From a bacterium (lineage in GTDB: Bacteria; Electryoneota; Electryoneia; Electryoneales; Electryoneaceae): DNA of 64,000 nucleotides. The stretch spans positions 2,560,001 through 2,624,000 of the forward strand of contig CAXXKJ010000002.1 in assembly GCA_963675295.2 (NCBI GenBank), read 5' to 3'. The stretch's first letter is position 1. Each line of letters opens with the position of its first letter. Below, in pieces: positions 19,548-36,500 of this stretch. The notes below the pieces were generated by a model. That model searched no databases. It was not told the origin of the DNA and worked only from the letters and a program-made list of their open reading frames with translations. Both the position numbers and the translations under genes were made by a program.

Positions 19548-20696
19548 TTAACGCGTTGCCATGCGTTGTTGAAGTTTCCAACGATTGGCCAATTCGGTCA
19601 ACCGTTCGTCCGCATGCTCGAAAAACATCTTCATCGACGTACAGAAGTGGTTGCTACCATGGTCGGCGGGGTCATGCCGACGGTCCTTGGTGCAGCCGCC
19701 ATAACAGTATTTCAGCCATTTGCAGTTCGTGCACTCCGGTGGAAGATCCGCCTTCATTCTGCCGAATTCACGTTGCCGTGGTGAATTCAGCATCTCGATC
19801 AAGCGGTCCTGCATGATGTTGCCTAGCTTCCACTCCGGCTCGACGAAAAAGTCGCAGGAGAAGACGTCCCCATTGTATTCGACAACGGTGTAGCTGCCGC
19901 ATTCCGGCTGCAAATTGCAATCCGGCGGTTCCGCACCAACGTACGAATGGAACACGGAATCGAAGAAGCGGACTGTGGTGTTTTTCTTGCTGTGCTGAAA
20001 ATCGTGATACCACAGGTCGAAGACAGTCTTAAGAAATTCGCCGTATTCGTCCGCACCCACAGACCACGGGGCGGTTTTGGACGGATCATTCGGATCGAGC
20101 TCGACGCACGGAATGAACTGCATGTAGGTCAGTCCGAGGTCGCGCAGGTAGGTATAAATCTCTTCGGCGTGCTGCACCGAATAGTCGGTTACGACCGTCA
20201 GCGCGTTCGTCGCGACACCGCGATCAAGCAGCAGCTTGGCGGCGTCGGTGACGTTCTGCCACGAGCCCTTCGTCGGACTTTGGTGTCGGTAGTGGTCGTG
20301 AACGTGCTTCGGGCCGTCCAGCGACAGGCCGACGAGGAATTTGTACTTGTCGAGAAACGCAGCCCACTTGCGTCCGATCAGCATTCCGTTGGTCTGCAGG
20401 CCGTTGCCGACGATCTGGCCGCGTCCATACTGCTGCTGAAAGTCGACCGCTTTTTGGAAGAAGGGGATACCCATCAACGTCGGTTCGCCGCCCTGCCAGC
20501 CGAATGTGACCTGGCGGGTGCCGTCGCGCATCACCTGCCTGACCAGTTCCTCGAGCACTTCCTCACGCATCCGGTGCCGCTGATGGTCCTTGAACAGCTC
20601 CGCTTTCTTCAAGTAAAAGCAGTAGCTGCAGGCCATGTTACAGTCAGGGCCGGCGGGTTTGACGAGGACGGCTTGCAGGGGACGGCGAAGGGACAT
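19548..20696 (-). CDS. anaerobic sulfatase maturase (anSME-type radical SAM/SPASM)
   Basis: KPAGPDCNMACSYCFY, WQGGEPTL, QTNG, GDVFSCD, CxxC..CYGGC..R..FC. Confidence 0.9.
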   Translation of the reverse strand: MSLRRPLQAVLVKPAGPDCNMACSYCFYLKKAELFKDHQRHRMREEVLEELVRQVMRDGTRQVTFGWQGGEPTLMGIPFFQKAVDFQQQYGRGQIVGNGLQTNGMLIGRKWAAFLDKYKFLVGLSLDGPKHVHDHYRHQSPTKGSWQNVTDAAKLLLDRGVATNALTVVTDYSVQHAEEIYTYLRDLGLTYMQFIPCVELDPNDPSKTAPWSVGADEYGEFLKTVFDLWYHDFQHSKKNTTVRFFDSVFHSYVGAEPPDCNLQPECGSYTVVEYNGDVFSCDFFVEPEWKLGNIMQDRLIEMLNSPRQREFGRMKADLPPECTNCKWLKYCYGGCTKDRRHDPADHGSNHFCTSMKMFFEHADERLTELANRWKLQQRMATR

Positions 20697-20823: not shown

Positions 20824-22632
20824 TCACTCTTCGAGCTCAACCACCACCGTGCTGGGAAGAATGCAGCGGAAACCGATTGTTGAGGCGTACCAACTGGCCG
20901 GATATGCCGTCTCCGGCGGGACTTCCTCAATCAGATCAACTGGCGTGGAGAACGCACCCCCGACGGCAAGGCGTCCATCCGGCGGAACCTTGTCCTGCAC
21001 CCATTCGGAGGCGTTCCCGATCAAATGCACCATGGTCGTTGGGTTGATGACCAGGCCAAGGCCGGGTGCCATCCAGCTGAAGCCGTCCTGCGGGCCTAGC
21101 AGGTTGGCGTATTCACGCGAGTTGATAATCCCACCCGACAGCAGGTCGATCGCCTGCGTGAAGATCTCCTTGCTCGGAAGCCGGAAACCGCCGTTGGGAT
21201 TGACCACAGCGCCAGTATCATCGTACGCCGGCTCAAGCCCGAGTGATTCGGAACGCCAGTTGCAGAAGTCGATCGCGTCCTGCCAGGTTACCATGACCGC
21301 TGGCATGTTGTTACGCTGACTCCAGAACCCACCGGACGCATGATCCGGTTCTTCCGGCAGTTGCCGTTCGGTTTCTTCACAGAAACGTGAATACTCGGCT
21401 GCGGAAACCTCGTCGGCGTCCACGAACCACGATTCACCATTCGGCAAGTCCATCTGCATCATGCCATACGCGACCGTGCGCACAGCCTGCGAAACGGCTT
21501 CAGAAATGGCTTCATCACCGAGGCTGTTCGCACTGATGATGCGGTACGATACATTCAACCCACGGCGGGGCAGATAGTCGGTATAGGTGTTGACATCGGC
21601 GGGTAGCTCGGCAATCGTCTCAAAGTCGCCGCCGTTGATCGAACGTTGCACGAAATACGTGGTCGTAATCGGTGCCGGTTCGTCCCATGTCAGCCCGACG
21701 ACGAGGTCTTCGACCTTATCAACCTGCAGGTTTTCGACGGTGTTCATCTGCAGTCGCGCGGACACAACTTCGCTGTAGTCGCCGATGTTTTCGCCCGCCA
21801 TGCCGCGCACCCGGTAGAAGGTGGTGCGGTCGAAGTCGACGTTTTCATCGACCCAGAAGGTGTCGCCGTACGCCACATCGAAGTACATCGTGTCGAGGCC
21901 TTCCAACTTTTGCACCTCGTACTTGTGTGGCCAGTCGGTCGGCGGTGTCCAGTTCAACTGGATACTGTGGTCGCTTAGCGCGCGCACATACGGACGTGTC
22001 GGCGGCGGGAAGGACAGGTACACCGTGTCCGCCACGGACGGTTCGCTGCGGTTGAAATCAGAAACGTAGAACAAGCGGAACAGCTGTGGTTTGAACGTTT
22101 CCAGGTTCTCCACGCGCACGGTGGTGTCACCCGAGGTGATGCTGCCAACGACGTTATAAACGCCCTTGACTCGCATCTCAACGTCGATGTGGCCTTCCCA
22201 CTGCAAGCTGTCCTGCGGTGCGGTAACGACAACCTGGTCGATACCATCACGTGTCACCAGCGGCGGGGCGGGCGGAGGAAGGTCGAATCGTGCTTCGTGT
22301 TCACCGCCGTACTCGTCCAGGTACCAGACCGGTTTCGGACGCAGGCGGTAGATGTAGTTGGTGTTGACGGTCAGACTGTCATCGAGGTACTCGTTCTCAT
22401 CCTCGAACTCAGCGATTGGCTTGAAATACTTAGCGTCGCCAATTTTGCGTTCGAGAACGACGGTATAGCGCGGACGATCCCACTCGAGCAGCAGCTGATG
22501 ATCAGACAGCCACTCGGATGTGATTGCCAGCGACTGATTGCCGCCCTCGTCGGCTGCTACTGCGGAGCCCGAGGGGAACAAACAGAGGAGACAAAGACTC
22601 AGCAGCAATATCGCGCTGAACTGTCTCATCAT
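20824..22632 (-). CDS. secreted FN3-repeat protein with C-terminal FGE/SUMF1-fold domain
   Basis: Signal peptide; FN3 motifs (LNW..YRVRG, LTW..YRI); EVS..Y..F, PAVMVTWQDAIDFCNW, FRLPS, GNASEW, GFRC. Confidence 0.85.
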   Translation of the reverse strand: MMRQFSAILLLSLCLLCLFPSGSAVAADEGGNQSLAITSEWLSDHQLLLEWDRPRYTVVLERKIGDAKYFKPIAEFEDENEYLDDSLTVNTNYIYRLRPKPVWYLDEYGGEHEARFDLPPPAPPLVTRDGIDQVVVTAPQDSLQWEGHIDVEMRVKGVYNVVGSITSGDTTVRVENLETFKPQLFRLFYVSDFNRSEPSVADTVYLSFPPPTRPYVRALSDHSIQLNWTPPTDWPHKYEVQKLEGLDTMYFDVAYGDTFWVDENVDFDRTTFYRVRGMAGENIGDYSEVVSARLQMNTVENLQVDKVEDLVVGLTWDEPAPITTTYFVQRSINGGDFETIAELPADVNTYTDYLPRRGLNVSYRIISANSLGDEAISEAVSQAVRTVAYGMMQMDLPNGESWFVDADEVSAAEYSRFCEETERQLPEEPDHASGGFWSQRNNMPAVMVTWQDAIDFCNWRSESLGLEPAYDDTGAVVNPNGGFRLPSKEIFTQAIDLLSGGIINSREYANLLGPQDGFSWMAPGLGLVINPTTMVHLIGNASEWVQDKVPPDGRLAVGGAFSTPVDLIEEVPPETAYPASWYASTIGFRCILPSTVVVELEE

Positions 22633-23915
22633 CGGGTGCCCTCACGCCTGACACAACGGAAACCGACGTACTGGTAACGTTCATGCGGGAAGCGCGTTGC
22701 CCGCCGGTTTAACTGCACATTTGCCGGCGGATCGAGGTAGCTGCCACCCTTGATGACAAAGCGGACGGTGGTGTCGACTTCTTCTTCAGCCGCTTGCGGA
22801 CCGACGTTGATCACGTTCAAGCTGTCCGCACCCGTCGAATCCGGAAGTAAAGATTGTTCGCCGACCAGGTTCGGGTTTTCATACTCGGCAGTTTCTTCGT
22901 CCATGGTTGGTTGCGCACGGACTTTGAAGTTCGTCAGTGTCCATTCGGACACGTTCCCGGCCATATCGTACAACCCGGTCGGAGTGATCGAGCTGGGATA
23001 ACTCCGCACATTTTCAGGCGCGCCAATCCGAGTTACATCCAACAGGTTGGCCTGGATCGAATCTGGCTTCGTCTGACCCCACGGATAGAACATGGTCAGG
23101 TCGTTGTCGTCGTAGCTGCCGAGGCAGGCGAGAATCCACTCTTCTTCGGTCGGCAGACTCTTACCAACCGACTGGGAATAGGCGAATGCACCGAACCAGC
23201 TGACAAAGCTCACGGGCAGGTCTTCGCGGCCTTCATCCGCCACGAAGACACCGTCCTCGACCTCGGTGATATACATCCGTTCGTCGAAGAAGACCCGGTT
23301 TTCGTAACCACTGGAAAGGAAGTCCGCGAACTCAGCGTTCGTAACTTCGTTTTCGTCAATGTAGAAACCGTTCGTCCACGCGACTTCCTGCTCCGTGTCG
23401 CGGAACTTGCGGAGTGGATCCGGCAGCGGTCCCGCTGAAATCCACTTCATGTTCGCTGGCGCCATCATTGCCGGTGGGGGCGTCATCACCTGGCCGTAAA
23501 TCGGCATGCCGAGACTGTCGACCATGACCGAATCGGGCATGGTTCCGAATCCACCCAACGAGTCCTGCATCAATGAATCCGGCATCATCATGTCCATCAT
23601 CATTGTATCAGACATCGTGGTGTCCGCCATCATCGAATCAGCGTCCATCGGTTCGGTGTCTTCGTCAAACATCTCGAACACGTCGGGGGCGAGGCTGTCG
23701 CCCGGCTGCTCTTCGAACATCATCATGGTATCGGCAGCCGTCCCAGTGGTGTCCGGTTCCTGCGCGAGGATGCCAGGAGCTGTTCCGAACAGCAGGATCA
23801 CGGCCGCCAGCAGCGACACGCCGGCGGTCAAACGTACCGGCCCGGTGTTTCGGCTCATGCGCATGGTTCGACTCTCTACCATCATGGTCGTCTTCGTGCG
23901 TTTCAAATGGCTCAC
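22629..23915 (-). CDS. exported FGE/SUMF1-fold protein with Met/Asp-rich N-terminal linker
   Basis: FYIDENEVTN, PVSFVSW, LPTEEEW, YPWG, GLYDMAGNVSEW, KGGSY, GFRC; start uncertain. Confidence 0.85.
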   Translation of the reverse strand: MSHLKRTKTTMMVESRTMRMSRNTGPVRLTAGVSLLAAVILLFGTAPGILAQEPDTTGTAADTMMMFEEQPGDSLAPDVFEMFDEDTEPMDADSMMADTTMSDTMMMDMMMPDSLMQDSLGGFGTMPDSVMVDSLGMPIYGQVMTPPPAMMAPANMKWISAGPLPDPLRKFRDTEQEVAWTNGFYIDENEVTNAEFADFLSSGYENRVFFDERMYITEVEDGVFVADEGREDLPVSFVSWFGAFAYSQSVGKSLPTEEEWILACLGSYDDNDLTMFYPWGQTKPDSIQANLLDVTRIGAPENVRSYPSSITPTGLYDMAGNVSEWTLTNFKVRAQPTMDEETAEYENPNLVGEQSLLPDSTGADSLNVINVGPQAAEEEVDTTVRFVIKGGSYLDPPANVQLNRRATRFPHERYQYVGFRCVRREGTR

Positions 23916-24844
23916 TGGGCGGGATCTCCTCCGCCAGGCTCAGGTTCCGTGTTCGTCGTATCCACACCGGCGGCAGCGCCTGCTGGATCCGGCGACTCAT
24001 CTTCGGCAGGCGTTGTTTCCGCCTCTGCGCCACCAGTCTGATCCTCGGGCTGTGCAATGGCTTCACCCGTTCCGGGCTCGGTCGTCGCCGCATCCGGCGT
24101 CATCATCGTGTCCGGTGCAATCGTGGTCGTTCCGGAGGTAGCATCATCAAGTGGAATGCCAACGCCCGGGAAGACCGGCGAATCCATGTCTTCCTGCGAA
24201 ACGAGCACGGGTACGTAAACCGTATCCGTAGTCAGCTCACGGATATACACCTTGAGCAAGTCATAGTTCAGCAGGGTATCGGCGATACCGGACGGGCTAC
24301 CCGCGGAATACCGCATGTCCTCTTCGGAGTAGTTCCAGAGGGTCAGCGTCGCGACATCCCTGTCCTTGGTAATGCGGAACAGTCCCTGGATGTAATTCCC
24401 GGTGTAGTAGTACTGCACACCCTTGACAACGGTTGCGAGAATGCCAGCGAACGGCGATTCGAGCACACGCGCGTCTTCCTGAATCTGGGTGACATTCAGC
24501 GTCGGAGCGGAATACGTCTTGTTTTCCTCGAACTCGTACAAGTTGAGGATCGACCGTTCCGTCTCGTTGATCTCGAGCAACGGGAACACTCGTTCCTGCG
24601 GATAGACGATCATCAGATCGCCCTGTCCGAAGCCGTTCCGGGTCACATCGATGAACTCGACAGAGTCAATCGCAATGGTGGGGCTGATCAACTGTCCCCG
24701 CCGGAACGTCTCAATGACTTCCGAATCAGCCACCTTGACCGAGTGGACTTCCTTCGGCTTCACTTCTTCATCCTGCGCCAGCAGGAGGGAGGAGGAGGCC
24801 AGAAGGAGCATGATGGCTATCAATCCCCCAAGCCTGCGCGTCAT
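23912..24844 (-). CDS. secreted hypothetical protein with acidic Thr/Pro-rich tail
   Basis: Signal peptide LLLA-QDE; 4-bp overlaps with both neighbours. Confidence 0.75.
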   Translation of the reverse strand: MTRRLGGLIAIMLLLASSSLLLAQDEEVKPKEVHSVKVADSEVIETFRRGQLISPTIAIDSVEFIDVTRNGFGQGDLMIVYPQERVFPLLEINETERSILNLYEFEENKTYSAPTLNVTQIQEDARVLESPFAGILATVVKGVQYYYTGNYIQGLFRITKDRDVATLTLWNYSEEDMRYSAGSPSGIADTLLNYDLLKVYIRELTTDTVYVPVLVSQEDMDSPVFPGVGIPLDDATSGTTTIAPDTMMTPDAATTEPGTGEAIAQPEDQTGGAEAETTPAEDESPDPAGAAAGVDTTNTEPEPGGGDPAQ

Positions 24845-26547
24845 CCTGTCTCCTCGAGCAAGTGGAAGTAGTGCTCAGCTCGGTTGAGATCGTTGAGATT
24901 TCGATATGCGGTGACAAGCAACTCGTAGAGGATTCGCCGGTCCGTAGGCGCAAGTTGGCTTGGCAGCTCCTGTGCGAGGGCTGCTTCACCGTAGCGCACC
25001 GCCCGTGTTGGATCCTGCTGGCTCATATTCGCCAGCGCCATCAGTGCGAACGCCTGATCCTTGTGCGGAAGCAGGGCGGACTGATAGTAGTAGACAAACG
25101 CTTTTTCACGTGTCCGGTCGTTCTTTTCAAGCCGGTTGGCGTAAATGGTTGCGAACGAGCCATACAGCTCGAGGACGCGTTCCATTTTGCCTGGCAGCTG
25201 GGTCAGCTGCGAGGTCATCAAGCGGCCGAAACCATCTTCGCCATTGTGAACCAGCAGCGTATCGAGGCTGGAGTCGATTTCGGTGTAGCCGACGCCGACC
25301 AGCATGTTGCGCAGACGGTCGAGCGCGGCTTCCGGTTCGTCGAGGTAACCGAAATCCAGCACCGCGGCCAGCGTATCCATCTCGAGCTGGGCGTTCCCGG
25401 CGACGAGGTCGTCACGAATCCCGCGGATTGCCTTCCGCGCTTCTTCGTGCTGGCCTTCGTTGATCATCTCGATGATCGGGATGCGAGCGGAGGCTGTGTA
25501 GATGTTGCCTTCGTCCCAGCCGATCCACTCGAGCATGTCCTTGGCGGTTGCGGCGAATACGGTGTCCGAAGGTACGCCGGGCCGGGCCATCGCCTGCAGC
25601 CGATTGGCATTGCTGATGAGGTCATTCCCCATCATCAGGTCCTGTTCGAGGTACATCTGTTCTCGAACGAGTAACAGCCAGTCGAGATACTCCAGGGAAT
25701 CCAGCTGGGTACGGCGTCTCAGCGGTTCGCCCGACAACCCGAACTGCGAGATCGGCGCCCAGGTCAGCAGCAGATCCTCTGACCGGCGGTACATGCGCAG
25801 GGCAGAAAGTGAATCCCCTTGCAGCATGTAGCGGTCACCCAGGTGCAGGGCGGTCAGGTAGTCGGATTGGTTGGTGCCGAACAGAATTTCTGTCTGTTCA
25901 ATCGCCTTGTCGAGGTTGTCGAGTGACTGGTGCAATTTCGCCAGGTCTTCCAACACTTCGATAAGACGGACACGTGACCAGTTGTCCCACGGGTTGTAGG
26001 TCAACGCTTCCTGCAGGAAGTCGCGAGCGGTTTCCAGGTGTCCGGCAGCCCGTTCGCGGATGGCGGGGCGGATGCGATCCAACTCCGTCATCGACAGGAC
26101 ATACACCGGTTCCCCGAGAATATCCTCGACGGCGACAATCTGCTCATCGACTTCGAGCGTAATCTCGAAGGCGCGCATGGTGTCGGCCGGATCCGGCGGA
26201 ATGTCAGGGGGAGTTGCACCCTTTTCCCAGAGTTCGACCAGCGGATGGCCTTGCGCGCGCACCTTTTCGGCTCGTTCGAAGTACGAACCGCTGATCGAGT
26301 CGGCCTCAGCGCCGACCATGACATGGCGGGCCGCTCGTGTTGCTTCACGTGCGACAGCCGTGTCAACCCCGGTGAATGCGACCAGGCTCAAGTCCATGGT
26401 ATCCGCCACGGATATGTCGCCGGGTTCCAGTGGCTCGGGCGGCGGTTCACGCCGTACCTCGCCTCCGGACGTGCAGCCATACATCCATAATGCAGCCAGG
26501 ATGAGGATGGCTGGGATCAGAGTTCGGAAGAATGCTGGTTGTTTCAT
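24841..26547 (-). CDS. TPR-like lipoprotein
   Basis: Lipobox WMYG-C; all-helical with TPR-like patterns; start placed at MKQPAFF. Confidence 0.75.
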   Translation of the reverse strand: MKQPAFFRTLIPAILILAALWMYGCTSGGEVRREPPPEPLEPGDISVADTMDLSLVAFTGVDTAVAREATRAARHVMVGAEADSISGSYFERAEKVRAQGHPLVELWEKGATPPDIPPDPADTMRAFEITLEVDEQIVAVEDILGEPVYVLSMTELDRIRPAIRERAAGHLETARDFLQEALTYNPWDNWSRVRLIEVLEDLAKLHQSLDNLDKAIEQTEILFGTNQSDYLTALHLGDRYMLQGDSLSALRMYRRSEDLLLTWAPISQFGLSGEPLRRRTQLDSLEYLDWLLLVREQMYLEQDLMMGNDLISNANRLQAMARPGVPSDTVFAATAKDMLEWIGWDEGNIYTASARIPIIEMINEGQHEEARKAIRGIRDDLVAGNAQLEMDTLAAVLDFGYLDEPEAALDRLRNMLVGVGYTEIDSSLDTLLVHNGEDGFGRLMTSQLTQLPGKMERVLELYGSFATIYANRLEKNDRTREKAFVYYYQSALLPHKDQAFALMALANMSQQDPTRAVRYGEAALAQELPSQLAPTDRRILYELLVTAYRNLNDLNRAEHYFHLLEETG

Positions 26548-26596
26548 CTCGCTCTCGCTGTGCGGGAACGTTCTGCCTGTTGTAGCATGGCGTTTT

Positions 26597-27613
26597 TCAC
26601 TGGGACGAGTTCCACCAATCGATGAAGATGTCCATGGACTCACCGGCGCGCGGATCGCCAGGGCTGATCTGGCTCATCTGCAAGCTCATACGATTGCCGC
26701 GAACCAGTACTCGACCTGCCTGGAAGCTCTCGCTGCGAGAGCCTTTTGCGCCAATGTCTGTTAGCAGGACGCCGTTAGTTCCTTGCACAAGGAAAATCTT
26801 GATCTCGGGCGGATTACCGTCACGTCCGAGCAGGTAAATCGTGTACTCCGTACCGTTGGGCGCCTTGTATTCAGCCGTTGTCGTCAGGTCGCCCGCCTGG
26901 TAGTTGAAATATTCCGGTTCTTTCAAGTCCTGCGGGATCTCGCGCTGATTGTCCCGCATCCACTCGATAATGGGGGAGACGTCTGATTCGATACTCCCCG
27001 TCGCGGCTTCATCTTCCAGTGTTGGTACGCTCGGACCTTCGCCAACGTCGAGAGACGCACGTCCAGCGGAACGATCAGAGCGGTTTCGTACGGAACCGCG
27101 ATCACCACGTCCCAGGCTGGCACGTGAACCGGCACCGACTTCGACGGACGCGTCACCACGCGGCACGACGATCGCAGAGGTGGAAGCGCGATCTGTTTCA
27201 CGCCGTGCGCCGAGGTCCCGGTCACGTCGCATATCCTGACGGCTGCTGCGTTGCCGCTCCAGATTCAGATCGATTTCCTGCTGCAGCGCGACTTCCTGCT
27301 GCCGCATGCGTTCGCGATCCATCGGTTCACGTTCACGCCGTTCTTCACGCCGTTCTGTCTGCCGGCGTTTAGGGGCTTCTTCCTTCTCTTCCTCTTCCTG
27401 CTCGTCTTCCTGCCGGACTTCCTCGCGTTCTTTCGCCTTGACGATGTCCACAATCACTTCACGGAGTGCTTGCGGCATCTGGGGCGACGTCACGAGGACT
27501 CTCAGCATTGGGAAGACCGTGAACAGGAACAGCATGATCAGGCCGCCCAAAGCGAGCGAGATCCATAAGGCTCGCTTCCGCTTTTTTTGTTCTGGTTCAA
27601 TATCCCAGAGCAC
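26597..27613 (-). CDS. TonB/TolA-like membrane-anchored periplasm-spanning protein
   Basis: Single N-terminal TM after KKRKR, long E/R-rich coil and G/S/R linker, globular C-terminus; follows ExbD genes. Confidence 0.6.
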   Translation of the reverse strand: MLWDIEPEQKKRKRALWISLALGGLIMLFLFTVFPMLRVLVTSPQMPQALREVIVDIVKAKEREEVRQEDEQEEEEKEEAPKRRQTERREERREREPMDRERMRQQEVALQQEIDLNLERQRSSRQDMRRDRDLGARRETDRASTSAIVVPRGDASVEVGAGSRASLGRGDRGSVRNRSDRSAGRASLDVGEGPSVPTLEDEAATGSIESDVSPIIEWMRDNQREIPQDLKEPEYFNYQAGDLTTTAEYKAPNGTEYTIYLLGRDGNPPEIKIFLVQGTNGVLLTDIGAKGSRSESFQAGRVLVRGNRMSLQMSQISPGDPRAGESMDIFIDWWNSSQ

Positions 27614-27615
27614 AA

Positions 27616-28152
27616 TTACTCCCCGGCTGAAGCTTCGTCTTCAGTAGGCGAATCGCCGGACAGGTCGACACCCGGGAAGGGTAGTTCGAGCTGCTGAGCG
27701 ATATCGTAAATATCGATCGTGCCGCTGACCGGTGACAATTCTGTCGGGATGACGTTGACGGCTTCGATTTCCTTCCCGAATTCGTCCATCAACGATCGTA
27801 GTTCCCGCTTCAGTGCCGCCGGGCTGTCAGCCACACGGTTTACGTCGACCTCGTCACCCTGCCGCCAATTGATCAGGTACTCCGGGTTGAAGAGTTCGAC
27901 GGTATACTGGCGAACCTGGCCGTCTTCGTCAAGTCGTTCACGGTTTTCCGCGCGCATGTTCTCCACGGTTGCCGTGACGATGATGCTGATGATCGCCAGA
28001 TTCTGCTCTTCCTCGGACTGTTCCTGCGCTTCCTTTTGAGTATAGGGGAAGCGTATCCGGGATTTTTCAGACAGGTCTGCGATGGAAACAAAGCCGACGA
28101 GGATGATCAGCACCACGTCGATCAGGCGCAGGATTGTTCCTTGGCCTCCCAT
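27616..28152 (-). CDS. ExbD/TolR-like protein (extended)
   Basis: ILRLIDVVLIILVGF TM with conserved Asp; paralogous to neighbour. Confidence 0.75.
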   Translation of the reverse strand: MGGQGTILRLIDVVLIILVGFVSIADLSEKSRIRFPYTQKEAQEQSEEEQNLAIISIIVTATVENMRAENRERLDEDGQVRQYTVELFNPEYLINWRQGDEVDVNRVADSPAALKRELRSLMDEFGKEIEAVNVIPTELSPVSGTIDIYDIAQQLELPFPGVDLSGDSPTEDEASAGE

Positions 28153-28165
28153 GGCTCACCTCTCG

Positions 28166-28549
28166 TTAGCGTTGATCGTGGAAGACGACAATCAAGCTGC
28201 GTGCGAGATCATGTCTGTCGGCAGCCTGAATCACCTTCTTGACTTGTCCCATCGGCGCGCCTTCATCAGCCCGAATGCGAATGTGGAGACTGTCGCCGAA
28301 AACCGACGTTTCGCCAGCGCTGGACAGGTACCGCTCCAGCCTGACAAGGTCCCACGGTTCGCGCTCGTCCTGGAAGAAGATATCTCCCCAGACATCGACG
28401 CTGATCGTAACATTGCCCTCGGTACTGATGTCCGGGGTTCGAACAGTTTCGGTTTCCGCGAGTTCCAGTTTTCGCTGGTTCTCGATGGTTGCCATGCTGA
28501 TGAACCCGAAGAGCACGATCAACACAATGTCGATCAGGCGCAAAATCAT
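28166..28549 (-). CDS. exbD: ExbD/TolR family protein
   Basis: LIDIVLIVLFGF TM; IRADEGAPMGQVKKVI. Confidence 0.9.
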   Translation of the reverse strand: MILRLIDIVLIVLFGFISMATIENQRKLELAETETVRTPDISTEGNVTISVDVWGDIFFQDEREPWDLVRLERYLSSAGETSVFGDSLHIRIRADEGAPMGQVKKVIQAADRHDLARSLIVVFHDQR

Positions 28550-29310
28550 TTCGCGCTCTCCTCAGACTTCTGTTGCTGACGCTTCTGCTGTGCGCGGTTG
28601 ACGAAGTGGAAACGAAGATCGTCGGCCTTGTTGTACATCTGCTCGAGCTGACGTTTGAACATCGCTTCCAAGGTCGTAGCAAACAGGTTCAGCATCACGG
28701 AAATCGCAATACCGACAAGGGTGGTAACCAACGCAGTACCCATCCCGGCGAGGGTGGTCTGGGTATCCAGAACGCCGCCGGTGAAATAGAATACCTGGTA
28801 CATGCCCCAGACGGTACCCAACAGACCAAACGAACCAGCCGAGTCGGACAGGAAGATCATCCAGGACCGGAAGGAGGCGAAACGCTCTTCACGCACCTTG
28901 GTGATCAAATCGACTTCCGCGTGGAAGTTCAGGTCCCCTCGAATCCCCATCGCGTACAGAATCGCGAGCAGACGTCCCATTTCGCCCTTGTTCGCGCGGC
29001 TACGCACGAGCTTGTCAACCTCTTCGGGGTTGCCACGGGCAAAACGGAAGCCGATCAGAGGCTTCGAGTTATTGGTTTCCATGGTCAGCGTGCCGAACTG
29101 ATAGAAGCTGACTACCAGACCGGCGAAGAGCGCGAGCCCCAACGGCCAGACAAAGCCCTGAAGCTGGTCGATCAGGTCACCGACCGTGAAGTTGCGGGTC
29201 GTATCCGCAGCATCCGAGGTTTCCTGTGCGTACCCCATGGACGCCAGCAGAACCAGGCCGGCAACCATACCGCCGACTCCGAGGAGCCGCTTCACTTGCT
29301 CTGTTCTCAC
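28546..29310 (-). CDS. exbB: MotA/TolQ/ExbB proton channel protein
   Basis: FGLLGTVWGM and GMGTALVTTLVGI signature helices; cleavable signal peptide. Confidence 0.9.
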   Translation of the reverse strand: MRTEQVKRLLGVGGMVAGLVLLASMGYAQETSDAADTTRNFTVGDLIDQLQGFVWPLGLALFAGLVVSFYQFGTLTMETNNSKPLIGFRFARGNPEEVDKLVRSRANKGEMGRLLAILYAMGIRGDLNFHAEVDLITKVREERFASFRSWMIFLSDSAGSFGLLGTVWGMYQVFYFTGGVLDTQTTLAGMGTALVTTLVGIAISVMLNLFATTLEAMFKRQLEQMYNKADDLRFHFVNRAQQKRQQQKSEESAK

Positions 29311-29349
29311 TGCACCACCTCTTCGATTCGTGACTCTATGTGACGTGTT

Positions 29350-31212
29350 TTACTCGTTCGCTTCCGTGTCCTCAACTTCATCTTGAACCGGAAGTGGGCG
29401 ATTTCGTTCAGGATTCAGGATCAGCTCGAAATCGGTCGCTGTCCGGTCACCCCCAGCCAGAGCTTTACGAATATCGATATTCCGATGGACCTCGTGGTGA
29501 ACAACTCGCATCCGTCCTTGTCCACCGAGCATCGTTACACCATCTGGCCGGTCATACGTAAACATGTATTCGTAAACTCCCGGCGGGAGCAGGGAGCCAT
29601 CAGCCGCGCGTCCGGTCCACACGATCTCATCCGGCATCGTTGTGGGCGATCCGAGGTCCAAGATAACCTCATTAGCCCCCAGATCGCGAATAGTAAATCT
29701 CCAATCAGCAGAAAACTCATTACTGAAAGCTTTGACGATGTAAAATGGGACCTCACCGACGAAGCGATCTTCAATAAATACGGGGCCTTTGCCCATCAGA
29801 GAGTCGACCGTGGCCAAGCTGAGTTCGTTCGTAAACTCGTTCTTAATCGGGACTTTCTTCTGAACTTGATAACCCCCACCGGTGATCACCTGCTCGAGCC
29901 CCTTGGCGCGGAACACGGATAACTGCGGTGCGATCACCTCGGCCTCGACATCATCCTTCTTCAGATAATGGCCCATCGTTTCCAGAGCACCGAGGTACTC
30001 CGGGGTGTACATCCCGACAGGCGGACGGCTGCGCACACGGTTCGCGCCGGGAATTTCCGCTTCGGCTCGAACGCTGATCTGGCGTTCGTCACCGAAGTCG
30101 CGGGGGCGCAGGTTCATCCGTTCCACCTGACCAAGCGCATCATCCACACGTGCCGTGGTATTGATGTGGCGGATGTTCAGCTCCGTATCCGGCGTGTACA
30201 GATAGATCTGGCCACGAGGGTCTGGAATCGGCCATTCGACACCCTTCGGGTCGTGCAACGGAATCGCGGGGAGGTCCTTGACCTCCGGCAGCGGACGCCG
30301 CTTGTAGGCATCGTAGACAAAGCCGAAACGGTGCGTACCATCCGACAGCAGATCGATCTCTGTCATCGGGTAGTCGTACCGGTAATTGAAGTACCAATTG
30401 TCAACGAGGTGGAACTCAACTTCCGACCAGATGGAACGCTGCCCGCCGTTCAATCGGATCATTGCGCCGTTCCCGATTACCCGGGCGACACCAAATTCCA
30501 GCCGGTCCTGCAGCTCAGTCCAATAGGATGTCTGTCCTGCGGAGCTGAAGTGCGCGTTTTCGACGCTGACCATCGCGGCGCGTAGCTGCCACCACTGGTT
30601 GATACGAAAGACCGCACCACCGCTGAAATGCCAACGTTCCTTCCACTCGCGTTCGCCGACACTCAGGTTCGGCCTGTTGATATCCTCCCACACCGCTGCG
30701 ATCTGCAGGCTCGGAATGGGGCGGAGGAAGATGCCGACGCTTGTGGACCAGTTGACCTTGAAGTCTGCTTCCTGAATGATCGGGTCGCTGAAATCGAACC
30801 GGTAGAATTCCAGCTGATCGTAGTCCATCATAAATGCGTCGAAACTGGCACCCACCGACAGTTGCCGCATGATGGGAATACCCAGTGACGCGCGCCACTG
30901 CGTTTCGCGGTACAAACCGGATTGCAGGTATTGAATGCCCGTTGCCAGCCCACGCCACTTCCACGGGAAGTGATAGCCGAGCATGCCCCCGTGAACCGTC
31001 GTGAAGTTGTCCGTCAGCGACGGATGGTAGAACGTACCCGTGATGCTGAATTTGTCACGGATCCAAGGGTTCAACGCCGGGTTGACAAAAACCGACTCGA
31101 GCAGGTTCAACTCCGCCGGATTCTGCCCATAACGATTGTACGCATGGGCAGTCGTTGCTCCGAGCTGGAGCAAAAACGGCAGTAGCAGGATTCCGAGGAG
31201 TTGTCGTCGCAT
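29350..31212 (-). CDS. PorP/SprF-like outer-membrane barrel with C-terminal periplasmic and FlgD-like Ig domains
   Basis: VFVNPAL, DINRPNL, YRYDYP..GTHRFG barrel motifs; C-terminal IVWTGRAADGSLLPPGVYEY. Confidence 0.7.
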   Translation of the reverse strand: MRRQLLGILLLPFLLQLGATTAHAYNRYGQNPAELNLLESVFVNPALNPWIRDKFSITGTFYHPSLTDNFTTVHGGMLGYHFPWKWRGLATGIQYLQSGLYRETQWRASLGIPIMRQLSVGASFDAFMMDYDQLEFYRFDFSDPIIQEADFKVNWSTSVGIFLRPIPSLQIAAVWEDINRPNLSVGEREWKERWHFSGGAVFRINQWWQLRAAMVSVENAHFSSAGQTSYWTELQDRLEFGVARVIGNGAMIRLNGGQRSIWSEVEFHLVDNWYFNYRYDYPMTEIDLLSDGTHRFGFVYDAYKRRPLPEVKDLPAIPLHDPKGVEWPIPDPRGQIYLYTPDTELNIRHINTTARVDDALGQVERMNLRPRDFGDERQISVRAEAEIPGANRVRSRPPVGMYTPEYLGALETMGHYLKKDDVEAEVIAPQLSVFRAKGLEQVITGGGYQVQKKVPIKNEFTNELSLATVDSLMGKGPVFIEDRFVGEVPFYIVKAFSNEFSADWRFTIRDLGANEVILDLGSPTTMPDEIVWTGRAADGSLLPPGVYEYMFTYDRPDGVTMLGGQGRMRVVHHEVHRNIDIRKALAGGDRTATDFELILNPERNRPLPVQDEVEDTEANE

Positions 31213-31216
31213 ATGC

Positions 31217-31939
31217 TTAACGGAGTACGTAAATGACACCGGAAGCTAGAATTTCCAAGTCTTCTTCCACGATGATGAAGTAGGGGCCGGGACGAACTTC
31301 ATGCCCGAGCCTGTCCACTCCATCCCAGATAATCTCGCCGTTCCGCAGGCTGCGTTTGCCCAGCGACATCACTCGGATGCCGTCCAGCCCAAAGATCCGC
31401 ACCAGCGGCTTCGTGAAGCCCTGGCCCGGACGCGCAACATGCAGCTCGTCGTTATACCCATCCCCGTTCGGCGTGAACGGAAGGGGATACACCTCAACAC
31501 CGTTTTCAAGGTACCCGTCCGCCTTGGTTTCACGCGTCGGGGCTTTCTGCATCGCCTGTTCGATCTCGTCCCACTTATCGCCCTGCACGAACAACGTCAA
31601 TGTGGAAGGACCGGAATATGGGCGTCCCTGCAGGCGGAATGTCGTGTCCAGGGTCACGGTCAGCCGGCTGTTCTTCGGCCATGTTCCAACCGGCCGCAGT
31701 AGGAGATTGTTGCCAGACACGGTCACAGACGCAGGAACATTCTCGTCGGTTGCCGTCGTGACGACGACAGCGGAGCTCACACCATCTGCCATCACCGGGC
31801 GGTCGAACTGCACGATCACGGGGTCGCCGGGCTTGACGATTCCTTCGGTCGCGCCGCCGGCTTCCGGCTGCAAGGTGACTGGCCACGCCAGCACCGGCAG
31901 CAGGCAGATCAACAGTATATATAGAGGAGTGCGAACCAT
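31217..31939 (-). CDS. Big_5 Ig-like protein with T9SS type-B (gliding-associated) CTD
   Basis: Signal peptide; VQFDRPV..LLLRP Ig-like domain; FTPNGDGYND..IF..G..WDG..GPYFIIV..G.IYVLR. Confidence 0.85.
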   Translation of the reverse strand: MVRTPLYILLICLLPVLAWPVTLQPEAGGATEGIVKPGDPVIVQFDRPVMADGVSSAVVVTTATDENVPASVTVSGNNLLLRPVGTWPKNSRLTVTLDTTFRLQGRPYSGPSTLTLFVQGDKWDEIEQAMQKAPTRETKADGYLENGVEVYPLPFTPNGDGYNDELHVARPGQGFTKPLVRIFGLDGIRVMSLGKRSLRNGEIIWDGVDRLGHEVRPGPYFIIVEEDLEILASGVIYVLR

Positions 31940-33072
31940 TACGGACGCTCCAACTGAATGCGAGTTGTGTCAACTGGCGCGTAATCGCGCGGCGTCATCA
32001 CCGTGCCACGGTCGATTTCCCGTGCGACCGCGAACAGCGAATCCGCTGCAACCCGTTCACCCATGTTGAACCGGCAGATCGCGAGGTACTGCACAACATC
32101 TTCGTTCTGCGGCTCCACCAGCAGGGCCTGTTCAAAGACTTCCGCTGCCTTCTCGAAGTTGCCTTCGTAGAAGTAGCTCTCCGCGATCAGCGAAAGGAAT
32201 CCGACTTCGTTTCCCGGCTCGGTCTTCAGGACCATCTCAAAGCGGAACCGTGAGTTGAGCCAGTCATCCATCCCGTAAAATGAGCTCCCGAGATGGCTAT
32301 CGACCATCGGACGTTCGATCAACTCCCGTTCCCGGATCAACGGGTCGTAATCGGTGAGCAGGCTGTCGGTCAGGTAATCCACCTGCCGCAGCTCTTCGTT
32401 GAACAGCAATATCCCCGCGCCACCCTTCTGCGGGGTCATGATTTCCTTGATCAGATCGTTCGAGTGGTTGAACTGCCCGCTCGCATAATAAATATAGGCG
32501 AGACGTTCGTGCACGTTCAGGCTGCGCATTGAGTCGGCAGTCAGGTGTAGCAAATGAGTCCGTGCTTCGTCGTACCGTCCTTCCTTCACCAGCGACTCGC
32601 TGGAGTACTCGAGCATCTCCGAAACAGACAGCGCGCGATCCGCGAATGGGGTCAACACCCAGTCGAGGTAATACCGAACACGCAGGTCGAGATCAATCAG
32701 GTGCCGAGCTTCGGAATAACGTCTGCGTTCGAATGCATTGTACGACTCCTCGGTCAGCTCGATATCAGCGAGCTTCAGCAGATAGAGGAGGTCGTCGCGG
32801 AATTCGTCACTCTGGCGCAGGGACCGGCTGGCGGCGTCAACGAAGGCGTCGTAATCTTCGAGGTAGTACGACACCTCGGCCAGCAGCATGTTGTAATGAG
32901 CGTCATGCGGCCAAGTGTCGAGAATTTGCTTGCGGGCAACCTCGTAGTTCTTGTTTTCCAGCTCCTGCCGGATCGCGGCATAGCGATTCGCGCATCCAAA
33001 CGAAGTAAGGATGAAGATCGCTAGAAGCGGAAAAACAAGCTGCTTCAGGTTTCTCACACAAACGATTTGCAT
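31939..33072 (-). CDS. TPR lipoprotein
   Basis: Lipobox SFG-C; TPR-like helices (AESYFYEGNFEKAAEVFEQALLVEP). Confidence 0.8.
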   Translation of the reverse strand: MQIVCVRNLKQLVFPLLAIFILTSFGCANRYAAIRQELENKNYEVARKQILDTWPHDAHYNMLLAEVSYYLEDYDAFVDAASRSLRQSDEFRDDLLYLLKLADIELTEESYNAFERRRYSEARHLIDLDLRVRYYLDWVLTPFADRALSVSEMLEYSSESLVKEGRYDEARTHLLHLTADSMRSLNVHERLAYIYYASGQFNHSNDLIKEIMTPQKGGAGILLFNEELRQVDYLTDSLLTDYDPLIRERELIERPMVDSHLGSSFYGMDDWLNSRFRFEMVLKTEPGNEVGFLSLIAESYFYEGNFEKAAEVFEQALLVEPQNEDVVQYLAICRFNMGERVAADSLFAVAREIDRGTVMTPRDYAPVDTTRIQLERP

Positions 33073-33336
33073 ACGTCCAGTTCCTGCCTCCGGTCGAAGA
33101 TGCGGAATCGTTGCGAATCACGGAGGGGTCGCGGTCTCATCGGTCTTTGAGTGGCAAATCTAAGAAAAAAAGACCGCATGCCAAGGGATAAGTCCCCTCG
33201 AAATCGTGTTTCTGGTTCCTTTACGAGTGCAGCGGAACGGATATCCACGCTACTAACCAGATTTGGTTGCGGTTTTAAAACAGTGCAGGCTAAGACCGAG
33301 ATTCACAAAATGTTGGTACCGGCAACACAATTAACA

Positions 33337-33548: not shown

Positions 33549-33572
33549 AAGCCCCCGGTGGTCCGGGGGCTT
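33549..33572 (-). terminator. intrinsic terminator of tricorn gene
   Basis: aagcccccgg-tggt-ccgggggctt with U-rich tail on - strand. Confidence 0.8.
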
Positions 33573-33599: not shown

Positions 33600-36500
33600 T
33601 TAGCGTCTGGCACGCTTTGGCCGCGGGTCCGGATTCGGCTCCGGCGGATCAAAACCGTCCAATTGCTGATTGATGATCTGGATGGCTTTATCCAGCTGCG
33701 GATCCTTGCCCGCGATCACATCCTTCGGCGTCTGCTGGACGTACACATCGGGAGCCACGCCGTAGTTTTCGACTCCCCAGGAACCGTCCGGATTGAAGAA
33801 TGCCCAGTTGGGAACGGTGACCGCGCCGCCGTCCAGCAACTCCGGCATGCCACTAATCCCGACCAGTCCGCCCCAGGTGCGCGTACCGACAATCGTGCCG
33901 ATGTTGCGCTTCTTGAATGCGAATGGTAGCCAGTCGCCACCGGACCCGGCGCTCTCGTTGATCAGCATCACCTTCGGACCGAGCACTGTCGCGGTCGGTG
34001 ACTGCTCGAAGCTGCCGGACCGGTTGGTCCAGTAGTTGACCAGCGGACGGTCGAGCATGTCGACAACGAAGTCGGCGATGTGGCCGCCGCCGTTGAAACG
34101 CTCGTCGATGATCACGCCGTCCTTGTCAAGCTGCGAGAAGAAGTAGCGGGTGAAGAATTCGTAGCCAGCGCCGGCCGTGTTCGGCATGTAGACGTATCCG
34201 GCGCGTCCGTTCGTCGCCGCAGCAACCTTGTCGCGGTTGCCATCAACCCAGTCACGCAAGCGCAACGCACGTTCGCTGCGCAGTGGCTCGACAGTGACCT
34301 CGCGCGCGTCATTCATCGACGGCTTGTCGTTCACCGTCAGCACGACCTGCTTGCCGGCCAGGTTCTGGAAGAATTCGAACAGGTTGTCGTCGTCCGTGAT
34401 CTCCATGCCATTGACCGCGAGCAGGTAGTCACCAACGCTGACATCGACACCCGGTTCGGTGAGCGGGGACCGTTCTTCCGCATCCCAGTTCAACCCGCTG
34501 AAGATCGTGTCGAAACGGTAACGGCCGTTTTCAGGCGAGTATTCGGCGCCGAGCAGACCGACGTTGACGCGGTCGACATCCGGCATGTCGCCACCCCAGC
34601 GGTACGCGTGGCCAACAACCAGCTCGCCGATCAGTTCGCCGATAAGGAAGTTGAGGTCTTCGCGATGGCCGACGTACTTCACGAACGGCTGGTACTTCTT
34701 ATACGCGGCGTCCCAGTCGACCCCGTGCATGTCCGGATCGTAGAAGAAGTCGCGCTCGTAACGCCACACTTCGTGGAAGATCTGTTCCCATTCCTTGCGC
34801 GGTTCGACGCGAACCTGCATGTCGGACAAATCGAGACTACCGTCGCCCGGGCTCGGACTGCCGGTCACATCAACAATGCCGTAGGAACCGCTACCGCTGT
34901 ACATCAGCTTGTTGCCGTCGGCGCTGATCATGAAGTTGTAGCTGCCACTGAGGAAGTCTTCCGATTCCTGGTCGTCAATGCTGAAGCGCTTGATGCTTCC
35001 ATCATCGATGTAGAACAGGTAGCCGCCCTCAGCCGTCTGCAGGCCCCAGAACATTCCGCTGCCCGCCGGAACCGAAATGATGCGCTGATCGATGCCGGCG
35101 AAGTCGATGGCAGGCATGCCGTCATCTTCTTCCTCGCCGTCGTCATCATCTTCCGCATCTTCCGCCTCGTCAGCGTCGTCTTCGTCATCCTCTTCATCGG
35201 CGACAACTTCTTCTTCGTCGCTTTCGGGCGCGAACGGCGACGGCTCATCCGCCTGTAGCACGGCCATGTAGATCTCGTCGCTCATCTCGCGACCATAGGA
35301 CGACATCTCCGACCCGGCGATTTGCAGGCCGACGTCGGTGCTGGAGGTGAAGAAGAGGTACTTGCCATCACGGCTGAATGCTGGATCGCCGACCAGGGAG
35401 GTACCATCCGTGATCTGGTGCGTGTCTTTGGACTCGGTGTCATAGACGAAGATCGCGCCAAACTCGTTCGGCAAGGTGCCACGGTAGGCGATGTAACGGC
35501 CATCCGCGGACCATGTCGGGTCGAACCAGCGGCCCATGCAGTCGGTCGCGACCTTCACGACCTTCTTGTCTTCAACATCATAATAGAATAGGGAACGCAG
35601 GTTGTCGGTGTAGAGGACCTTCTCGCCTTCCGGATCCCAGGACTCGAGGAAGTAATAGTTGTCCGGGCCGATCTTGTGGATTTCCGGCTCGTCCTTGCCG
35701 AGCTGATCAACGATGTGCAGCCGGTATTCGCCGGACGCATCGGACAGATACGCAATCATTCCGCCCTTGGGTGACCACAACGCATAGCGTTCGTTCACGC
35801 CAGGCGTGTTCGTGATGTTACGCACCTCGCCCTTGTCTTCCGGTACGGTCCAGACATCACCACGGGCCGTGAACAGGCCGCGCTTGCCGGTGGGGGAGAC
35901 CTCGAACCAGTGCGCCATGTTGCCAACGTCCTCAAAGTGCGGGCGCGTGTCCGGCAGGTCCGGGTTGATGTAGACATCGACCACGTTGATGCGGCCGCTG
36001 GTGGTGTCGAGCGTGTGGATCTCGCCTGCCTGCTCAAACACCAGCGTGTTGTCGTAGCCCTTCAAGGACTTGACATCGTAATCGCGGTAGGTGGTCAGCT
36101 GCGAGACCTCACCCGTGTTCGTGTTGTAGGAGAACACGTTCATCGTGTGGTTGCGGTCGGAGAGGAAATAGATCATGTCGCCGAGCCACACCGGGTAGGT
36201 GTCGTTGGCGTGCGTTTCGCCGCCGGTCACCGGGTCGGTGAAGCTGGCGCGCGGGATCTCGGTGACGTCCATCGACGAGCGGTCGAAGATCCAGATCCAC
36301 GGGCTCAGGCCACCTCGGTAACGCTTCCAGGTCGCGAACGGATCTCCGACCATGGTGTACGCAATCTGCTGGCCGTTCGGGGAGAAGCAGGCGCGGGAAA
36401 CACGCGGCAGTTCGACCTGTTCCGGCCAGCCGCCGTCGGTGGAAACCGTAAACAGCTTGCCGTAGCGGCGGGTTTCCGAATTTCGTGTGGAAAGGAACAG

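Follow-up and report, generated by a model that had tools for sequence, protein, structure and literature searches.

The window analysed here is a 64,000-nucleotide stretch of a genome of the phylum Electryoneota (contig CAXXKJ010000002.1 of assembly GCA_963675295.2), and our subject is a set of 11 co-directional, near-contiguous open reading frames (ORFs) on its minus strand at 20824-33072, numbered G1 to G11 from the 5′ end of the presumed operon. [quoted passage not shown] A literature search on PorP/ExbBD clusters, GldM-less T9SS and the T9SS of KSB1/Zhuqueibacterota found no published description of such a module; the supplements of PMC12204202 lay outside the scope of that search. The reading that we favour, with about even confidence, is that the locus encodes a dedicated proton-motive-force motor acting on one type-B cargo–carrier pair as a self-contained trans-envelope machine. 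An earlier sequence-only reading had proposed a T9SS-related apparatus energised by an ExbBD- or AglRQS-type motor instead of GldLM, with GldK/J-like partners; taken as a whole, that interpretation is partly supported.

The operon is tightly packed. In the ORF listing of the window, neighbouring frames from G1 to G11 overlap by 1-47 nt or are spaced by 2-39 nt, and every gap still measures less than 50 nt when G3 and G8 are begun at internal start codons, which are likelier. Eleven packed co-directional genes with the domains assigned to them in the sequence-only reading are thus confirmed, although some family calls are sub-threshold and lean on orthologues; throughout, bit scores are quoted alongside the curated cut-offs of the Pfam and NCBIfam models, and scores below a cut-off are marked as such. 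Pfam and NCBIfam scans of G1–G11 detected no TonB-dependent receptor, TolB-like protein, OmpA/Pal protein or plug domain, which bears out the earlier statement that TonB-dependent receptors, TolB and Pal are missing from these 11 genes. We define the core of the module as G1–G9 and treat G10 and G11 as accessory genes of the window's clade only.

This arrangement lies far beyond chance, since it is syntenic in eight further loci of the same phylum and its G1–G9 part recurs in most of 63 distant loci. The phylum is represented in our genome collection by 79 genomes, in which, window included, nine loci of this type were found. Two of them (L047 and L048) contain all 11 genes; L050 contains G2–G11 and one extra gene of the formylglycine-generating enzyme (FGE) fold; L051 and L053 contain G2, G3, G7, G8, G9 and three FGE genes, with ExbB/ExbD/ExbD missing; and in three (L049, L052 and L054) the contig ends within the locus. 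A query with the G3 protein alone retrieved homologues from 15 of the 79 genomes, 12 of them strongly, in three families. Searches with this protein or with an 8-row alignment returned genomes of the same phylum only, and a protein homologue search gave 4 close matches. The wide distribution came to light solely through the family of the G7 C-terminal domain: among 1.84 billion proteins it has 189 representatives at E<=1e-3, and 17 of these lie below 1e-30. Almost all family members are ~330-370 aa long with the domain at the C-terminus, and those that carry a name come from KSB1 and Zhuqueibacterota.

The 63 distant loci were located with a 14-row alignment of distant members of the G7 family, and their submitter labels comprise KSB1, Calditrichota/Caldithrix, Zhuqueibacterota, Balneolales/Balneolaceae, Cyclonatronaceae, Rhodothermales, Ignavibacteriota, Melioribacteraceae and others. 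Hidden Markov models (HMMs) built from window-type loci only recovered the order G1-G2-G3-G4-G5-G6-G7-G8-G9 in most of them. At E<1e-8, the threshold behind the counts for distant loci, many of which stop short at contig ends, G3 and G7 occur together in 49/63 loci and G3, G4, G5 and G7 in 44/63, while all of G2–G9 are present in 32/63. The neighbourhoods of these loci revealed no other conserved gene around the module. Operon conservation, which the sequence-only reading had made decisive for its proposal, therefore reaches well beyond the phylum for the G1–G9 core.

The T9SS character of the operon comes from its second and third genes. G2 (31217..31939, minus strand like all genes of the operon) encodes a small secreted protein of 240 aa with an immunoglobulin (Ig)-like domain (Big_5, 27.1 bits) and a type-B-like T9SS C-terminal domain (CTD). 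The Ig assignment made earlier is upheld by Big_5; the CTD is below cut-off in the window (CHU_C 23.5 bits, cut-off 27; TIGR04131 17.2 bits, cut-off 35) and at or above it in orthologues, with CHU_C at 41.1 bits in L127 and 30.8 bits in L051 and TIGR04131 at 35.6 bits, again in L127, against the cut-off of 35. Genome-wide, G2 is the sole TIGR04131 match. Its orthologues are much larger, spanning 874-1099 aa (typically ~1050 aa, the median of 48; 874-940 aa in the more distant loci of the phylum), and combine Big_5, FG-GAP/VCBS, ASH/Ig-like and CARDB domains. The large type-B adhesin whose presence at orthologous loci had been proposed as a check was accordingly found, in the form of an adhesin-like protein.

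G2 stands directly upstream of G3 (29350..31239), which encodes a 629-aa PorP/SprF-like outer-membrane barrel with a C-terminal extension. The Pfam model PF11751 matches at 28.4 bits (cut-off 22.3), with orthologues at 28-30 bits, and TIGR03519 gives 36.2 bits, below its cut-off of 90.55 yet covering model positions 6-291 of 292. The barrel part occupies aa ~15-310 and is followed by an extension of ~300 aa that belongs to no family. The earlier description of a PorP/SprF-like barrel beside a type-B CTD gene thus finds support in both PF11751 and gene adjacency. In the genome, G3 is the only PorP-family match, and across the distant loci G2 and G3 matches each occur in ~48-51/63, adjacent wherever both occur. 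At its end, the G3 tail is similar to the W-x-G...PGxY motif of the cargo CTD/FlgD-Ig (hhalign probability 55%), a hint that tail and cargo CTD may be alike.

The next four genes would supply the motor. G4 (28546..29310) is a divergent stator protein of the ExbB/TolQ/MotA family (PF01618 MotA_ExbB, 51.6 bits, cut-off 22.9); because its scores lie far below the cut-offs of all NCBIfam equivalogs (ExbB, TolQ and MotP), it falls into no named subfamily. Of the five MotA_ExbB matches in the genome, it is the most divergent among the small ones. Two ExbD/TolR paralogues follow, G5 (28166..28549; PF02472 35.5 bits, cut-off 25.4) and G6 (27616..28152; PF02472 18.1 bits, below the same cut-off of 25.4 and over the N-terminal part only). 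Both combine a PF02472 match with the transmembrane Asp; the sub-threshold G6 is backed by its orthologue in L127, where the TolR match covers positions 9-123 of 129. The Asp lies in LIDIVL in G5, a motif kept in 50/52 family members, and in LIDVVL in G6, kept in 47/49. As a side observation, the G4 homologue of KSB1-/Balneolales-type modules (e.g. L075 and L127) is ~500 aa long, with weak Big_1 and MG4 Ig-like matches past the channel domain, an Ig-like extension that is unusual for an ExbB.

G7 (26597..27613) is a membrane-anchored transducer candidate in which an N-terminal transmembrane helix is joined by a highly charged linker to a new C-terminal domain of ~130 aa (aa 205-338). No Pfam or NCBIfam family was detected in the window protein or in any member scanned, the L127 orthologue included; the Pfam scan returned no von Willebrand factor type A (vWA) match in the C-domain, the N-terminus gave only a weak TolA match (23 bits, cut-off 59), and a search of the G7 profile against PDB sequences yielded nothing meaningful. 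G7 had been called TonB-like. The architecture agrees with that name, namely a transmembrane anchor, an extended linker and a position after the exbB-exbD genes in an order conserved in distant loci, whereas the C-domain does not, as it has no Pfam match and aligns with the genome's own TonB at an hhalign probability of 0.1%.

Flanking these components are two TPR proteins and a protein of a new family. G1 (31939..33072), the first gene of the operon, encodes a 377-aa TPR (tetratricopeptide repeat) lipoprotein (TPR_19 45.9 bits, TPR_2 42.9 bits) whose N-terminus ends in a sequence, ...LTSFGC, that is lipobox-like by eye. Its homologues lie upstream of the cargo gene in many distant loci, mostly as weak HMM matches (10/63 at E<1e-8, more at E<1e-3). 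G8 (24841..26643) is a TPR protein with weak TPR matches and a probable lipoprotein, with an internal start at MKQ...WMYGC, and has homologues in 53/63 distant loci. G9 (23912..24844) is a small secreted protein comprising a conserved domain of ~215 aa and an acidic tail, present in 56/63 distant loci. Scans of 25 G9 members assigned no Pfam or NCBIfam family, its profile found nothing meaningful among PDB sequences, and comparison with GldN from the gldKLMN locus L138 gave an hhalign probability of 0.7%, that is, no profile similarity.

The rest of the genome (4.81 Mb in 2 contigs, 92.8% complete) supplies the context in which this operon must be read. SprA is present over cut-off (830 bits), and so is PorU at 708.7 bits, adjoined by a PorV-like barrel at 153.7 bits, below the cut-off of 250. 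The CTD part of the PorU model has 45 further matches, which point to many candidate type-A T9SS cargo proteins. Profiles for GldL, GldM and GldN (TIGR03513, TIGR03517 and TIGR03523, the last searched without a positive control) and Pfam GldM_1st found no match in the genome. GldK was likewise not detected over cut-off genome-wide (best score 86.8 against 350), and no gldLMN-like set lies near either of the two genes that most resemble GldK. As positive controls, GldM was recovered in 51/201 genomes of a Bacteroidota sample and GldL in 2/2 GldM-positive genomes. The genome check proposed with the sequence-only reading thus leaves gldL, gldM and gldN undetected and no GldK over cut-off, in a genome with SprA, PorU and a PorV-like barrel. 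In module-bearing genomes of other lineages, SprA is over cut-off in 20/20, and the same 20 genomes gave no GldM match in 19 and a weak partial match in one.

Five MotA/ExbB-family genes, G4 among them, occur in the genome. The other motors are a flagellar MotAB with neighbouring flagellar genes, two canonical clusters, TolQ-TolR-TolA-TolB and, with TonB_C domains, ExbB-ExbD-ExbD-TonB-TonB, and a 645-aa MotA-like gene beside a MotB/OmpA-like neighbour. Since the canonical Tol and Ton clusters are encoded separately, the motor of the operon is a third, specialised and divergent one. In the loci examined, its genes accompany a PorP-like gene and never a TonB-dependent receptor; the situation that the sequence-only reading had set against itself, motor genes associated with TonB-dependent receptors while a canonical gldKLMN exists, was seen in neither respect. 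Separately, the 645-aa protein (L073, G000:C2:1507180-1511222) matches MotA_ExbB weakly and has after it, in this order, a MotB_plug/OmpA protein and a 431-aa ORF; the set may be a non-flagellar stator system, for defence or otherwise.

The mechanism that we favour builds on two features of known T9SS. Type-B cargo remains bound to a dedicated PorP-like carrier, and some porP-like genes adjoin porE-like genes, as described in a section of PMC9143113. In type 9 transport, the step that needs energy is the one at which the carrier–substrate complex is ejected from SprA, and the SprF C-tail is disulfide-bonded to GldK within a moving GldJ/K/N track, according to an excerpt of PMC12635249. By the established type-B rule, G2, mostly a ~1000-aa FG-GAP/Ig adhesin-like protein in relatives, would be exported through SprA and would stay surface-bound to its dedicated PorP/SprF-like carrier G3. 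The inner-membrane stator of G4 with G5 and G6, each ExbD with its transmembrane Asp, would convert the proton-motive force into movement of G7, which would pass the force to the 300-aa periplasmic tail of G3, with G1, G8 and G9 serving as adaptors. The output might then be either a loaded carrier pulled out of the SprA translocon or a surface protein that is moved or tensioned, in the manner of a device that propels or retracts an adhesin. Two or three proteins of the FGE fold may have joined as periplasmic partners in the window's clade. The case for a dedicated motor draws on the synteny of the operon within and beyond the phylum, on the CTD and PorP_SprF matches of the cargo and carrier orthologues, on the uniqueness of the PorP-like and type-B-like genes, both of which lie in the operon, on the transmembrane Asp kept in both ExbD families, on SprA in module-bearing genomes and on the status of the motor as a third, separate one.

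A close known counterpart to such a device is SprB-SprF of F. johnsoniae, in which type-B adhesin-like cargo likewise stands beside a dedicated PorP/SprF-like carrier. The periplasmic C-terminus of the carrier is the presumed coupling point to a proton-motive-force apparatus in both cases (for F. johnsoniae, part of PMC12635249), and GldJ and GldK of the track have the FGE fold, as do proteins encoded nearby in the window's clade. Unlike SprF, G3 lacks a twin-cysteine tail and bears a 300-aa extension instead, and unlike GldLM, the motor of the window is private to its operon and of the Tol/Ton class.

Several points weigh against a dedicated motor. The physical contacts, the direction of force and the output are all inferred; a complex prediction that combined the G3 tail (318-629), G9 (25-225) and the G7 C-domain scored 0.00, which speaks neither for nor against binding. 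In the window itself, the calls for the G2 CTD, for G6 and for TIGR03519 on G3 are below cut-off. The short SprF-type C-tail with twin cysteines for bonding GldK was not found in G3, which contains no cysteine at all, and 47/49 family members have 0 Cys within the last 40 aa; the SprF-GldK disulfide, the one demonstrated coupling chemistry, is therefore inapplicable.

Gene content adds further counter-evidence. ExbB/ExbD are absent between G3 and G7 in seven loci (L051, L053, L098, L100, L108, L109 and L111), all of which keep cargo, carrier, G7 and G8 with G9, except L098, which ends at G7. In these loci the motor must consequently act in trans or be dispensable, and their G7 may use a stator encoded elsewhere. 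Conversely, two families of the phylum (f6 and f7) carry a reduced module in which ExbB, a single ExbD, G7 and G8 go with a long G9 (557-604 aa), and the reduced modules of these families and of Rhodothermales-labelled loci have no adjacent cargo–carrier pair, so that the motor core is not strictly tied to one cargo. In L140 (G048:C12:56000-75900) and L142 (G046:C3:7000-22000) the reduced module lies ~450 bp from a divergently transcribed sprA, identified by a direct SprA match, and in G047 (C167) it is beside sprA as well, by coordinates only; this proximity fits a more general T9SS role better. We note in addition that in L140 two genes separate G7 from G8, one for a type-A CTD protein (Por_Secre_tail, 41.1 bits) and one that is DNA-methylase-like.

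Such a general role would be that of a substitute T9SS energy chain, in which ExbB/ExbD-G7-G8-G9 and the barrel, joined in the window's clade by the FGE-fold proteins, energise SprA for all cargo, type-A included. We judge this rather unlikely. It is favoured by a genome that combines SprA, PorU, a PorV-like barrel and 45 type-A CTD-like matches with GldL/M/N undetected and no GldK over cut-off, the GldM and GldL models working elsewhere, and by a count of 0/79 for GldM in the phylum. The genome has one PorP-like and one small type-B-like gene, both in the operon, a situation similar to that of P. gingivalis with its single PorP plus PG1035. The reduced modules next to sprA point the same way (L140, L142 and, by coordinates, G047), as do the 19/20 module-bearing genomes of other lineages without a GldM match. 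The composition of the operon (barrel, motor, periplasmic proteins and FGE-fold proteins) parallels porPKLMN of P. gingivalis, where a PorP-family barrel is likewise clustered with a proton motor and with periplasmic and FGE-fold proteins, and SprA/Sov, PorU and a PorV-like barrel are common to the P. gingivalis T9SS and the window genome. A further likeness concerns PorP-PorE-PG1035, with a barrel-bound protein of type-B CTD and a TPR-containing lipoprotein partner (in the relevant part of PMC9143113).

The differences from P. gingivalis are nonetheless considerable. The motor of the window is of the ExbB/ExbD type, not PorL/PorM, with no GldL/GldM match; the barrel G3 bears a 300-aa tail; G9 is unlike GldN by profile; and the FGE-fold proteins are not orthologues of PorK, are not lipoprotein-like and are clade-specific, G10 being nearer to EgtB/FGE than to PorK and FGE genes missing from all 63 distant loci.

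Distribution argues against the substitute chain more directly. SprA is found in 79/79 genomes of the phylum, 75 of them over cut-off, and GldM in 0/79, whereas the G9 family is found in 34/79 and the G7 family in 35/79, one of the G7 matches being doubtful and weak. The motor is hence not the phylum's general T9SS motor. The module families reach 0-1/16 genomes in family f2, 0/4 in f4, 1/9 in f3 and, with the window genome excluded, 6/15 in f1, and this patchiness implies that most SprA-bearing relatives manage without the module.

The absence of GldM is itself hard to read in some lineages. In the class of genome G079, sampled with 121 genomes that submitters label Balneolales/Rhodothermales, the GldM model TIGR03517 was over cut-off in 0/121, with six weak partial matches in ORFs of 348-392 aa, so that GldM is there either very divergent, short or absent. 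The model is blind or nearly so in this class, and non-detection is therefore not absence. G9 occurs in 24/121 of these genomes, with up to 5 copies per genome, a multiplicity that suits cargo-specific units over one central motor. The overlap between G9 carriers and the six genomes with weak GldM matches is 0 (expected ~1.2), and in the 201-genome Bacteroidota sample G9 occurs in 2 genomes only; with so few G9 genomes and so weak a GldM model, an anti-correlation with GldLM cannot be established. The claim that the motor works instead of GldLM consequently goes beyond the evidence, given a motor in 34-35/79 genomes, SprA in 79/79, GldM in 0/79 and a GldM model that is weak in the class of G079.

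A different kind of function would be that of an envelope tether, a Tol-Pal-like or PorE-like stabiliser acting on the barrel, or of energised import through a FadL-family barrel, with the surface FG-GAP/Ig protein capturing ligand, as TonB does for SusC/SusD. ExbB/ExbD motors classically serve import or envelope integrity, and the module resembles ExbB-ExbD-TonB and TolQ-TolR-TolA in its stator genes with transmembrane Asp, followed by a single-pass long-linker protein with a globular C-domain, and in an outer-membrane barrel as the presumed client. PorP-like proteins are 14-stranded FadL-family barrels (a passage of PMC9143113). TPR lipoproteins resemble CpoB-/PorE-type tethering parts, and in Bacteroidota the Ig-like periplasmic extensions of TonB-dependent transporters are implicated in contact with TonB (both from portions of PMC12204202); the G3 tail, for its part, has an Ig/CTD-like motif at its end. 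The resemblance has its limits. The G7 C-domain is neither TonB_C nor TolA_III (no Pfam family; hhalign 0.1%), its transmembrane helix shows, unlike that of TonB, no histidine by eye, and the client, instead of being a plugged transporter of 22 strands, is a barrel of the PorP/FadL type. Moreover, there are two ExbD paralogues, canonical TolQRA-TolB and ExbBD-TonB sets are already present elsewhere in the genome, and none of the 11 genes encodes an OmpA/Pal-type peptidoglycan-binding domain, a plug or a TonB C-domain. As the type-B sorting domain on the partner and SprA in 20/20 module-bearing genomes tie the barrel to secretion, we find tethering or uptake improbable.

The remaining comparison is with gliding in M. 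xanthus, in which AglRQS-Glt and the related Nfs combine one TolQ-like and two TolR-like proteins, TonB-like proteins, TPR proteins, outer-membrane barrels and a surface adhesin, a composition that we give from general knowledge. Shown homology to the module is limited to the stator families and generic TPR similarity, and the outer-membrane part here belongs instead to the T9SS world, with a PorP-like barrel and type-B CTD cargo. A convergent myxobacterial-style focal-adhesion gliding motor (AglRQS-Glt/CglB-like), which is a special case of the dedicated motor and predicts motility, is the least probable reading, because its supports (a part list the same in kind as Agl-Glt, adhesin-like cargo orthologues with FG-GAP and Ig repeats, a weak TPR match of the G1 orthologue to GltE at 48 bits against a cut-off of 225, and motor-linked transducers with gliding roles mentioned in part of PMC12204202) are set against a window cargo of 240 aa that would make a poor adhesin, a genome with flagellar MotAB and neighbouring flagellar genes, and a GltE match that reflects generic TPR similarity, not Glt homology. 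Motor-linked transducers with non-TonB C-domains encoded beside TolQ, two TolR and a TPR gene are described in the same source (PMC12204202, Mol Biol Evol 2025) and are a precedent for the dedicated motor. Unlike the vWA-type force transducers in that portion of the paper, G7 has a C-domain of ~130 aa without a vWA match, and its operon contains a PorP-like barrel and T9SS cargo.

The two last genes of the operon are clade-specific accessories. G10 (22629..23915) encodes a secreted protein of the FGE-sulfatase fold (PF03781, 119.9 bits), and G11 (20824..22632) a secreted protein with fibronectin type III-like repeats (fn3 21.9 bits, below the cut-off of 25) and a divergent FGE-sulfatase fold (PF03781, 45.3 bits). 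Their description as GldK/J-like does not hold up: G10 scores 71.3 bits with the GldK model (cut-off 350) and 27.9 bits with GldJ (cut-off 458), G11 is likewise far below both cut-offs, and against PDB sequences G10 is closer to EgtB (42.7 bits) and FGE (40.9 bits) than to PorK (29.6 bits), while G11 has no match. By eye, neither protein has a lipoprotein Cys after the signal peptide, and no gldLMN context was found for the FGE-fold genes. Residues ~60-150 of G10, between signal peptide and FGE domain, form a low-complexity stretch rich in Met and Asp.

Nor do these genes belong to the conserved machine, of which they had been taken as a part. Homologues of G10/G11 number 0 in the 63 distant loci and FGE genes are present in 6/9 loci of window type, the other three ending before that position. 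In a quick tree of 57 G3 homologues, the 8 window-type rows fall on one side of a branch with a Shimodaira–Hasegawa-like approximate likelihood ratio test (SH-aLRT) support of 100, sister to two loci labelled Gemmatimonadota, a topology that fits a single gain of the FGE genes.

At its 5′ end, the operon is preceded by a candidate promoter (33157..33184, minus strand; TTGGCA-16-TAGATT, 9/12 positions) ~85 nt upstream of G1, which is a consensus match only, of a kind found at 10 sites against 6.8 expected by shuffling. A strong terminator-like hairpin (33549..33572, minus strand) with a 10-bp stem, 8 G-C pairs and a T-run closes the upstream tricorn-protease gene and marks the 5′ boundary of the operon. 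That gene (33600-36884, minus strand) encodes a 1094-aa tricorn-type protease with PD40 repeats, Tricorn_C1, PDZ_Tricorn and Peptidase_S41 domains. Downstream of G11, on the same strand, lie a radical-SAM/SPASM gene (19548-20696) that is syntenic in the two closest loci only, a gene for a glutaminyl cyclase (18729-19535; 295.8 bits with Glu_cyclase_2) and another radical-SAM/SPASM gene (17615-18742). In P. gingivalis, the N-termini of T9SS cargo are modified by glutaminyl cyclase. These downstream genes were considered as members of the operon and rejected, their synteny being confined to the two closest loci.

Expression is hinted at by small contigs, 95-99% identical to the window, in four metatranscriptome runs of one study, some of which span the junctions G6/G7 and G8/G9 as well as the 5′ end of G1. 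This is a weak sign of operon expression in a close relative; contigs from RNA libraries are no proof of transcription, and stretches of the operon that they leave uncovered are uninformative.

Both the T9SS and Bacteroidota gliding are thought to depend on one special motor, GldLM, and the module bears on how the T9SS operates in phyla that have SprA but no detectable GldLM. Two new families, the G7 C-domain and G9, neither with a Pfam, NCBIfam or PDB sequence match, here join T9SS parts to a motor of the Tol/Ton/Agl class, and their conservation spans loci labelled with at least five or six lineages of the Fibrobacterota–Chlorobiota–Bacteroidota (FCB) group. That ExbB/ExbD-G7-G8-G9 is the missing T9SS energy source in the many FCB lineages with SprA, PorU and PorV and no GldLM is a possibility to which we give limited credence. 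The module nevertheless offers a testable case of mechanical energy delivered to a type-B carrier without the SprF-GldK disulfide, and of a possible second T9SS energy chain. Since L127 is labelled as a cultured Balneolaceae strain, not as a metagenome-assembled genome, genetics may be possible. If the energy-source reading is true, T9SS carriers, and through them SprA, would be drivable by a 5:2 motor of the Tol/Ton class acting through a new transducer domain, and the GldLM/KN chain of Bacteroidota would be one solution among two or more. The window's clade, with its FGE-fold proteins, would then show how a GldK-like track could be recruited.

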